DNA from: Escherichia coli
GTDB lineage: Bacteria; Pseudomonadota; Gammaproteobacteria; Enterobacterales; Enterobacteriaceae
Reading direction: 5' to 3' (one strand)
Assembly (NCBI RefSeq): GCF_048403405.1
Contig: NZ_CP183129.1
DNA: 64,000 nucleotides
A program made the position numbers and the translations under genes. Below, one piece after another: positions 17,655 to 17,981 of the stretch; the first letter of the stretch is position 1, and each line of letters starts with the position of its first letter. Under the pieces are notes generated by a model. It made no database searches. It saw only the letters and a list, made by a program, of their open reading frames with translations, and was not told the DNA's origin.

Positions 17655-17981
17655 TTATTTGTTTATAATGCGCTTACTTAATACAAACCATTGAATATAC
17701 CCTCCTGACAGAAAATAAAGCCATATTATTATCGCCATAATATACTTACTATCAATCCTTACGCCAATAATGTCTGAAACAGTCCCTATAAATATTAGAG
17801 CAATAAAGAATACTATGCCTGTTGGAAAACAGATTACCATCATTCCATAAGACATGAGACTAATTAACTCGCTCACATCACGAGTGGAGTCTAATAGTGA
17901 AAGTCTATGCATGGAAAAGAATAGTATTAAAAGCGATAAAGCCAGCCATATAGCTCTGAATAAAAAAATAATATATTTCAT
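17655..17981 (-). CDS. small polytopic membrane protein (108 aa), candidate stranded immunity protein
   Basis: [22 protein letters not shown]...; about three hydrophobic helices; AT-rich; stop codon directly abuts the orphan rhs frame. Confidence 0.4.
   Translation of the reverse strand: MKYIIFLFRAIWLALSLLILFFSMHRLSLLDSTRDVSELISLMSYGMMVICFPTGIVFFIALIFIGTVSDIIGVRIDSKYIMAIIIWLYFLSGGYIQWFVLSKRIINK

Follow-up and report, generated by a model that had tools for sequence, protein, structure and literature searches.

A ybfB gene stranded in an Escherichia coli Rhs array is probably an orphaned immunity gene of the RhsC toxin tip

Main

A 64,000-nt stretch of an Escherichia coli genome (RefSeq assembly GCF_048403405.1, contig NZ_CP183129.1), referred to here as the window, contains an Rhs array that lies between rpmE and yiiX, beside an IS1, and that carries a small open reading frame (ORF) stranded between an H-repeat and an orphan rhs core. 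This ORF is ybfB, a known gene that lies directly 3′ of rhsC in K-12. We consider it probable that the window copy is the immunity gene of the C-terminal toxin of RhsC (the RhsC tip), orphaned by an H-repeat-associated rearrangement, and that the toxin itself is a permuted papain-like hydrolase. The first-pass annotation of the window had proposed the ORF as a candidate orphan immunity protein, and the comparative evidence below supports this: within the window the ORF stands intact with no working toxin beside it, and of its own tip only residues 121–150 are left.

Identity of the stranded ORF

The gene and the elements that frame it directly are the following.

17655..17981 (stop codon included), minus strand: ybfB, predicted cognate immunity gene of the RhsC C-terminal toxin (ORF list, K-12 identity and AlphaFold2)
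17992..17989, minus strand: Shine–Dalgarno sequence of ybfB, GGAG (read from the sequence; also in K-12)
17981..18075, minus strand: remnant of the RhsC tip, its last 30 codons (WSNDSLETCKMKCSGNNIGRFIRFVFTGVM) and a TAA that overlaps the ybfB ATG by one base (BLAST, tblastn and hidden Markov model (HMM))
17625..17654, minus strand: AT-rich 30-nt spacer from ybfB to the orphan rhs core (in frame; 100% identical to K-12)

ybfB is an intact ORF of 108 codons, running from ATG to TAA, with a very hydrophobic product, and in this the first-pass description of an AT-rich, 108-residue membrane ORF was accurate. At 31.5% G+C it falls below both the window as a whole (51.5%) and the main full-length rhs gene (59%), and a stop-free run of 108 codons at the composition of ybfB has a chance probability of about 2e-4. 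The GGAG lies 7 nt from the ATG. The product is 100% identical over its full length to K-12 YbfB (WP_000873944.1; b0702), and the two nucleotide sequences share 99.4% identity, with two synonymous and no non-synonymous differences. A megablast search of 5426 complete E. coli genomes, the set behind all population counts given here, matched the region in 2697, annotated as ‘ybfB: protein YbfB’.

The surroundings of the gene on its 3′ side are also those of K-12. There (locus L001), rhsC occupies 2909..7102 and ybfB 7102..7428, with the ybfB ATG overlapping the rhsC stop codon by 1 nt (TAATG), and an orphan rhs fragment starts at 7459, 30 nt past ybfB and in the same frame (an offset of 357 nt from the ybfB start). 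Positions 18082..16588 of the window are collinear with L001 7001..8495 at 97% identity (BLAST), a block that takes in ~100 nt from the 3′ end of rhsC, then ybfB, the spacer and, as far as the point at which the tips diverge, the orphan (ybfO) core. The two copies thus have in common the protein, the Shine–Dalgarno sequence, the TAATG overlap, the spacer and the in-frame orphan core; they differ in what lies upstream and in where they sit, the K-12 gene following an intact 1397-aa RhsC in the ybfA–ybgA locus and the window copy following 30 toxin codons and an H-repeat in the rpmE–yiiX locus.

Beyond the ybfB TAA, the frame stays open without a further stop codon through the spacer and into the orphan rhs, down to 16119. 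The first-pass annotation had noted an orphan core in frame immediately after the stop; the frame is as described, but ten non-Rhs codons (17654..17625) intervene. As the arrangement, expected by chance in one case in three, is identical in K-12, it was inherited with the block, and the idea of stop read-through from ybfB into the orphan core finds no support.

Linkage of YbfB to the RhsC tip across taxa

The case for an immunity role is carried by the genomic company that YbfB keeps. All ten RhsC-tip-like domains examined, with tips down to ~37% identity, are directly followed by a YbfB-family ORF (K-12, two in Salmonella L003, and L007, L009, L010, L012, L013, L014 and L015); the absence of homologues beside toxin tips elsewhere was, together with a lack of expression, what the first-pass annotation had named as grounds for abandoning the idea. 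In Salmonella, a 66%-identical YbfB homologue starts 3 nt after an 83%-identical RhsC-type tip, and the L003 contig has a second complete RhsC-type tip followed by another member of the family. Six more distant YbfB homologues (27–40% identity) were chosen by rank alone for a neighbourhood check, and four of them (L007, L009, L010 and L012) lie directly after an RhsC-like tip. L007 encodes a full Rhs protein of 1517 aa with a tip 37% identical to that of RhsC, and its stop codon overlaps the start of a gene for a YbfB-like protein of 33% identity. A search from the toxin side gave the tips at L013, L014 and L015, each with a YbfB-family ORF directly downstream that had been missed by gene callers at L014 and L015.

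Identities of toxin and putative immunity protein run in parallel, from 83% and 66% in Salmonella to 37% and 33% at L007, with L009, L010, L012 and L013 also paired. YbfB therefore has both hallmarks looked for in an immunity gene: it is encoded on the same strand directly downstream of a toxin tip (in K-12, behind the remnant in the window and at the ten tips), and it co-occurs and co-diverges with one toxin domain across taxa. Judged by these comparisons, YbfB is very probably a membrane protein that confers immunity to the RhsC tip.

Architecture and family of YbfB

Kyte–Doolittle hydropathy of YbfB gives three hydrophobic blocks (roughly residues 3–24, 41–69 and 80–101), in keeping with the about three hydrophobic helices of the first-pass annotation. 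The AlphaFold2 model, built from 46 sequences (predicted local distance difference test (pLDDT) 94), instead has four helices (2–29, 33–50, 54–72 and 79–107), the middle block being divided at the invariant Pro53, and helices 2 and 3 being joined by an invariant FPxG turn. Family members share a positively charged N-terminal end, while the C-terminal tail is strongly basic (mean 4.9 Lys/Arg) and the 25–40 loop is acidic. Because of this charge distribution we favour a model in which YbfB is a four-helix inner-membrane protein with both termini in the cytoplasm and loops 25–40 and 70–79 in the periplasm.

A profile search of 1.84 billion representative proteins returned 71 cluster representatives at E ≤ 1e-3, most of them 105–125 aa long and with P53, W87, Q97 and W98 invariant; by this measure YbfB is a member of a real, conserved protein family. 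The ratio of non-synonymous to synonymous substitution rates (dN/dS) of ybfB between E. coli and Salmonella is 0.25, and this comparison shows the gene to be under purifying selection. The search against known immunity families that the first-pass annotation had called for yielded this uncharacterised family and no established one: YbfB matches no Pfam family, Imm57 included, even at E ≤ 10, the Imm57 profile matches none of 46 YbfB family members, and neither YbfB nor the RhsC tip has a significant family in Pfam, NCBIfam or PADLOC. A Foldseek search with the YbfB model retrieved uncharacterised members of its own family and nothing else, so that no annotated fold resembles it.

One segment of AlphaFold Database entry Q9AVI3, a 238-aa UniProt ‘Putative senescence-associated protein [Pisum sativum]’, is 100% identical to YbfB; the plant record almost certainly contains contaminating bacterial sequence or derives from a chimeric cDNA.

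The H-repeat junction

Two further elements lie upstream of the tip remnant.

19365..18076, minus strand: H-repeat (ISAs1 family), 1290 bp, with terminal inverted repeats CAGGGAAAG...CTTGCCCTG (ends by comparison with K-12)
19366..19914, minus strand: decayed orphan, consisting of a core-end remnant (19914..19735) and a frameshifted, 3′-truncated Tlde1-like tip (19734..19366); not the partner of YbfB

What remains of the RhsC tip is 30 codons at 18075..17984, 97% identical to K-12 rhsC by BLAST and matched by tblastn and HMM to tip positions 118–150. Since only residues 121–150 are left, the candidate catalytic residues His30, Asp48 and Cys118 are gone. A near-identical genome, CFSAN061763, has a single ybfB place, and the remnant is there a 105-nt pseudogene (‘hypothetical protein, missing N-terminus’). 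The H-repeat is 95% identical to the ybfL H-repeat of K-12, and its transposase gene is broken into two ORFs that overlap (19221..18415 and 18463..18086) and is annotated ‘ISAs1 family transposase, frameshifted’, so the element is probably immobile. A target-site duplication or direct repeat was looked for at its ends and none was found.

On the far side of the H-repeat, the 2008 bp from 21373 to 19366 are 97.5% identical to the K-12 RhsA locus (a yibJ-type orphan tip, yibG (Sel1) and the decayed tip). The decayed tip is weakly Tlde1/YkuD-like and has no similarity to the RhsC tip beyond a DPLG motif. Strain LD67-1 has an intact version, a ‘tlde1 domain-containing protein’ followed by an ‘Imm57 family immunity protein’; in the window the Imm57 gene is absent, and the H-repeat truncates the Tlde1-like tip ~20 codons short of its end. 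The H-repeat thus joins an RhsA-type block to an RhsC-type block, with two unrelated tips truncated. A simple insertion of the element was considered and rejected, as its flanks map to different K-12 loci and no target-site duplication accompanies it; for these same reasons we take the H-repeat to mark the junction of the two truncated tips.

The first-pass annotation had instead read the ORF as the immunity gene of the decayed tip, split off by an H-repeat insertion. The order of tip, H-repeat and small ORF on one strand would suit that pairing, but the decayed tip belongs to the RhsA-locus block and its intact homologue is followed by an Imm57-family gene, the RhsC remnant lies between the H-repeat and ybfB and abuts the latter, and the flanks of the element show none of the marks of a simple insertion. 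These comparisons refute the pairing, to which we leave only a very slight probability.

We propose that two H-repeat copies recombined to form the junction, or that it arose from an adjacent deletion. The rearrangement has removed all but the last 30 codons of the RhsC toxin; in a third place on the chromosome, rpmE–yiiX, it has fused the RhsC-type block of ybfB and orphan core to a block of RhsA type.

Either side of the H-repeat carries a copy of the 8-mer TCTAATGA (at 19378..19371 and at 18070..18063, minus strand), each 5 nt from the end of the element, which reads SND both in the Tlde1-like tip on the left and in the RhsC tip on the right. As the pair is not adjacent to the H-repeat ends it is not a target-site duplication; it is probably a coincidence, and possibly a microhomology at the junction.

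The RhsC tip as a predicted hydrolase

The RhsC tip is a hydrophilic domain of 150 residues (RhsC 1248–1397). Its AlphaFold2 model, built from 12 sequences (pLDDT 73, predicted template modelling score (pTM) 0.68), has five strands followed by three helices, and a Foldseek search of AFDB50 returned, after members of its own family, weak matches to PPPDE and YaeF/YiiX proteins. Invariant across diverse tips are H30 and D48, which lie on successive strands, and C118–Q119 (at a helix N terminus, in the motif (N/D)CQ(D/E)W); His30, Asp48 and Cys118 correspond to H1277, D1295 and C1365 of RhsC. The tip has nine conserved cysteines in total, of which, besides C118, C34, C44, C75, C84, C88, C129 and C133 are invariant and C5 nearly so. 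On the strength of the model, we predict that the tip is a Cys-rich, permuted papain-like hydrolase of the NlpC/P60 superfamily, with H30, D48 and C118 as candidate catalytic residues. The nine cysteines could make up four disulfides (possibly with a twin CxxxC helix pair) and a free catalytic thiol, and a disulfide-rich tip would suit a periplasmic enzyme.

Searches of Pfam and NCBIfam gave no match for the RhsC tip. Among 12 diverse tips, none matched the HMMs for DUF4105, DUF6695, LRAT, Peptidase_C92 or Peptidase_C97, and the only Pfam match at E ≤ 0.1 was of one tip to an unrelated PANTS-like family (E = 0.06).

Mechanistically, the most likely target of the toxin would be an envelope lipid, which it would attack at an acyl or ester bond; this would take place at the inner membrane, where YbfB would counter the toxin by binding or occlusion, as Imm-Act1 counters Tox-Act1, a phospholipase of Salmonella.

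Comparison with known toxin–immunity systems

By analogy, the nearest characterised counterpart of the RhsC tip and YbfB appears to be this Tox-Act1/Imm-Act1 pair. Tox-Act1 is a permuted NlpC/P60 effector of the type VI secretion system, toxic in the periplasm only, that acts as a phospholipase on phosphatidylethanolamine and phosphatidylglycerol; Imm-Act1, its immunity protein, has two transmembrane helices, and the same paper reports phospholipase activity for TseH (PMC12994826). Its supplements mention neither ybfB nor RhsC. The RhsC tip is predicted to share with Tox-Act1 a papain-like fold permuted so that His precedes Cys, and the clades to which Tox-Act1 was related are structural neighbours of the tip (YiiX, LRAT/PLAAT and TseH); like Imm-Act1, YbfB is a small integral membrane protein encoded directly downstream of the toxin. 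Unlike Tox-Act1, the tip is fused to an Rhs cage, is only 120–150 aa long and has nine conserved cysteines, and YbfB is modelled with four helices rather than two. No relation between the two toxins was detected at the level of sequence, the Pfam models DUF4105, DUF6695, LRAT and Peptidase_C92 all missing the tip; because this sequence-model test failed and the likeness is one of predicted fold, we do not file the RhsC tip as a member of the Tox-Act1 group.

TseH/TsiH of Vibrio cholerae (PDB 6v98) is a further comparison, the structural alignment of TseH with the RhsC tip having 10% identity. Pfam, including the DUF6695 model of the TseH clade, matches none of the RhsC-like tips. The immunity protein of TseH is not known to be a polytopic membrane protein.

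At the level of the locus, the window resembles the orphan arrays of contact-dependent inhibition (CDI) and Rhs systems described by Poole et al. in 2011 (PMC3150448). In both, a full-length gene is followed by displaced tips and immunity genes; the immunity genes retain start signals that the toxin fragments lack, and insertion sequence elements disrupt some modules. The window differs from those modules in that the toxin is almost wholly deleted, leaving no ‘reloadable’ tip, so that immunity is the one function that could be in use.

Expression and alternative explanations

If ybfB is transcribed in its stranded position, by read-through from the rhs operon or from the H-repeat, it would protect the cell against neighbours armed with the RhsC tip. 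From the main rhs gene through to ybfB every gene has the same orientation, and a promoter and terminator scan found no terminator-like site on the ybfB strand from 20500 to 17600. In K-12, genomic SELEX (systematic evolution of ligands by exponential enrichment) placed an RNA polymerase holoenzyme peak inside rhsC upstream of ybfB in two minor-sigma data sets (PMC5493296); this hints at an internal rhsC promoter for ybfB, most of that region being deleted in the window.

Several observations weigh against the reading of ybfB as an orphaned immunity gene of a papain-like toxin. Promoter-like matches number 17, compared with 14.1 ± 4.2 in shuffled sequence, and none is assignable. The upstream transposase frame ends at 18086, 102 nt before the ybfB ATG, and because it stops short and the toxin frame is gone, translational coupling of the K-12 type is lost. 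The intactness of ybfB could reflect a recent rearrangement in one lineage. On the toxin side, the RhsC tip alone has no sequence match to PDB chains (with the core included, only the core matches), and hhalign of the tip against an approximate sequence of PLAAT3 gave a probability of 0.1%, its path pairing H30 with His23 and C118 with Cys113, which is no evidence. In the searchable literature, no experiment on YbfB or the RhsC tip was found. Finally, two YbfB-family genes lack an adjacent recognisable RhsC-like tip, one in Leminorella (L008) and one in a metagenome (L011), so the linkage of tip and YbfB is not absolute. Each of the two may be an immunity gene that has been orphaned, or may have another toxin as its partner. 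The upstream neighbour of the Leminorella richardii gene (L008 6001..6369) codes for a protein of 577 aa in which a long Glu-Pro repeat and a single hydrophobic segment stand out; the metagenomic gene occupies L011 5001..5384.

The promoter counts, which do not rise above shuffled controls, also speak for the alternative that we take most seriously, though we think it unlikely: that ybfB is an immunity gene by descent whose stranded copy is an inert relic, unexpressed or expressed too weakly, and intact only as the rearrangement is recent and the lineage clonal. The rhsC frame and any promoter within it are gone beyond 94 nt upstream, the adjoining H-repeat transposase is itself frameshifted, and the junction-bearing genomes listed show no difference from one another over the junction (100% identity), as would fit a single recent event. 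Set against this are the intact Shine–Dalgarno sequence and ATG, the one-strand gene order with no terminator-like site in between, and the restriction of differences from K-12 to synonymous ones, though there are just two. Orphan immunity genes of CDI arrays, moreover, are co-transcribed with the main operon and functional (PMC3150448).

Two alternatives concern what YbfB does, and both seem to us improbable, the second by a shade more. Colicin E1 and A immunity proteins and the CdiI of EC93 are small, polytopic inner-membrane proteins that guard against pore-forming or membrane-depolarising toxins, and YbfB resembles them in size and architecture. A toxin of that type would be hydrophobic, which the RhsC tip is not; the tip has instead nine conserved cysteines and an invariant His and Asp, and its model is a β-rich enzyme fold that includes helices, unlike the all-helical domain of a pore. 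The membrane-targeting toxins that the first-pass annotation had envisaged thus fit in a loose sense only, the predicted toxin being an enzyme that may attack lipid, with a pore-former disfavoured. YbfB might otherwise be a membrane protein with a function other than immunity, either a housekeeping or osmotic role or an accessory one in toxin export or activation. The two family members found away from a recognisable tip would fit this, a survey from 2023 offered an osmotic role as a guess based on its kdp neighbours in K-12 (PMC9976479), and one or more further Rhs immunity proteins of E. coli are reported to have been repurposed (PMC7618764). Yet ybfB travels with the toxin tip and not with kdp, the window copy lying between rpmE and yiiX, and its tip-paired homologues in Salmonella and in metagenomes directly follow the tip. 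Nor is it a housekeeping gene, because about half of E. coli genomes lack it.

Neighbouring elements of the array

One further module of the array adjoins the spacer.

16119..17624, minus strand: next orphan rhs module, a core fragment with a DUF4329 tip (Pfam DUF4329, E = 2.9e-16)

The frame of this module is open for 511 codons (16119..17654), its first ATG, GTG or TTG start being a GTG at 17378, and its core part, up to 16588, belongs to the same K-12 RhsC-locus block as ybfB. A small AT-rich ORF (15794..16153), elsewhere annotated as ‘RHS element protein dsORF-f3’, overlaps the end of the orphan rhs, and between the Rhs array and yiiX lies an IS1 (15032..15824, with insA and insB frames), which the near-identical genome has annotated as IS1H-like and frameshifted. 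At the other end, the full-length rhs gene (20404..24633) carries a tip that in K-12 exists only as a displaced, yibJ-type orphan at the RhsA locus, and is followed by a yibG-type Sel1-repeat gene (19925..20392); either an orphan tip was ‘loaded’ onto a full core or the reverse took place. An Rfam scan of positions 15000–21000 gave no match.

Distribution and significance

Across the genome set, the exact junction of H-repeat and RhsC remnant occurs in 148 of 5426 genomes, ybfB in 2647 and the N-terminal part of the RhsC toxin in 2548 (~47%), which leaves ~99 genomes with ybfB but without that part of the toxin. Strains with the junction include CFSAN061763, ST2747 and MS 69-1. The stranded ybfB is best read as an ordinary orphan immunity gene of an uncharacterised toxin/immunity family. 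Its K-12 counterpart sits in the reference genome without a studied function, a survey having guessed at an osmotic role from its neighbours (PMC9976479); taking YbfB as the partner of the RhsC tip, and the tip as a permuted NlpC/P60, probably lipid-targeting hydrolase, gives testable functions to both.

A fuller picture, which we offer tentatively and as a whole hold to be somewhat less than evenly probable, is that the RhsC tip and YbfB form an uncurated family present in about half of E. coli, K-12 among them, in which a small, disulfide-rich, permuted papain-like hydrolase that attacks an envelope lipid is neutralised within the membrane by a four-helix protein, with W12, FPxG, W87 and GYxQWF of YbfB as the putative toxin binding site and stranded copies serving as stand-alone shields against a weapon very common in E. 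coli. If true, the pair would be a second, sequence-unrelated case of the Tox-Act1/Imm-Act1 principle. The toxin-less ybfB copies of the window and of the 148 junction-bearing genomes are candidates for cross-protection in competition between one E. coli and another.
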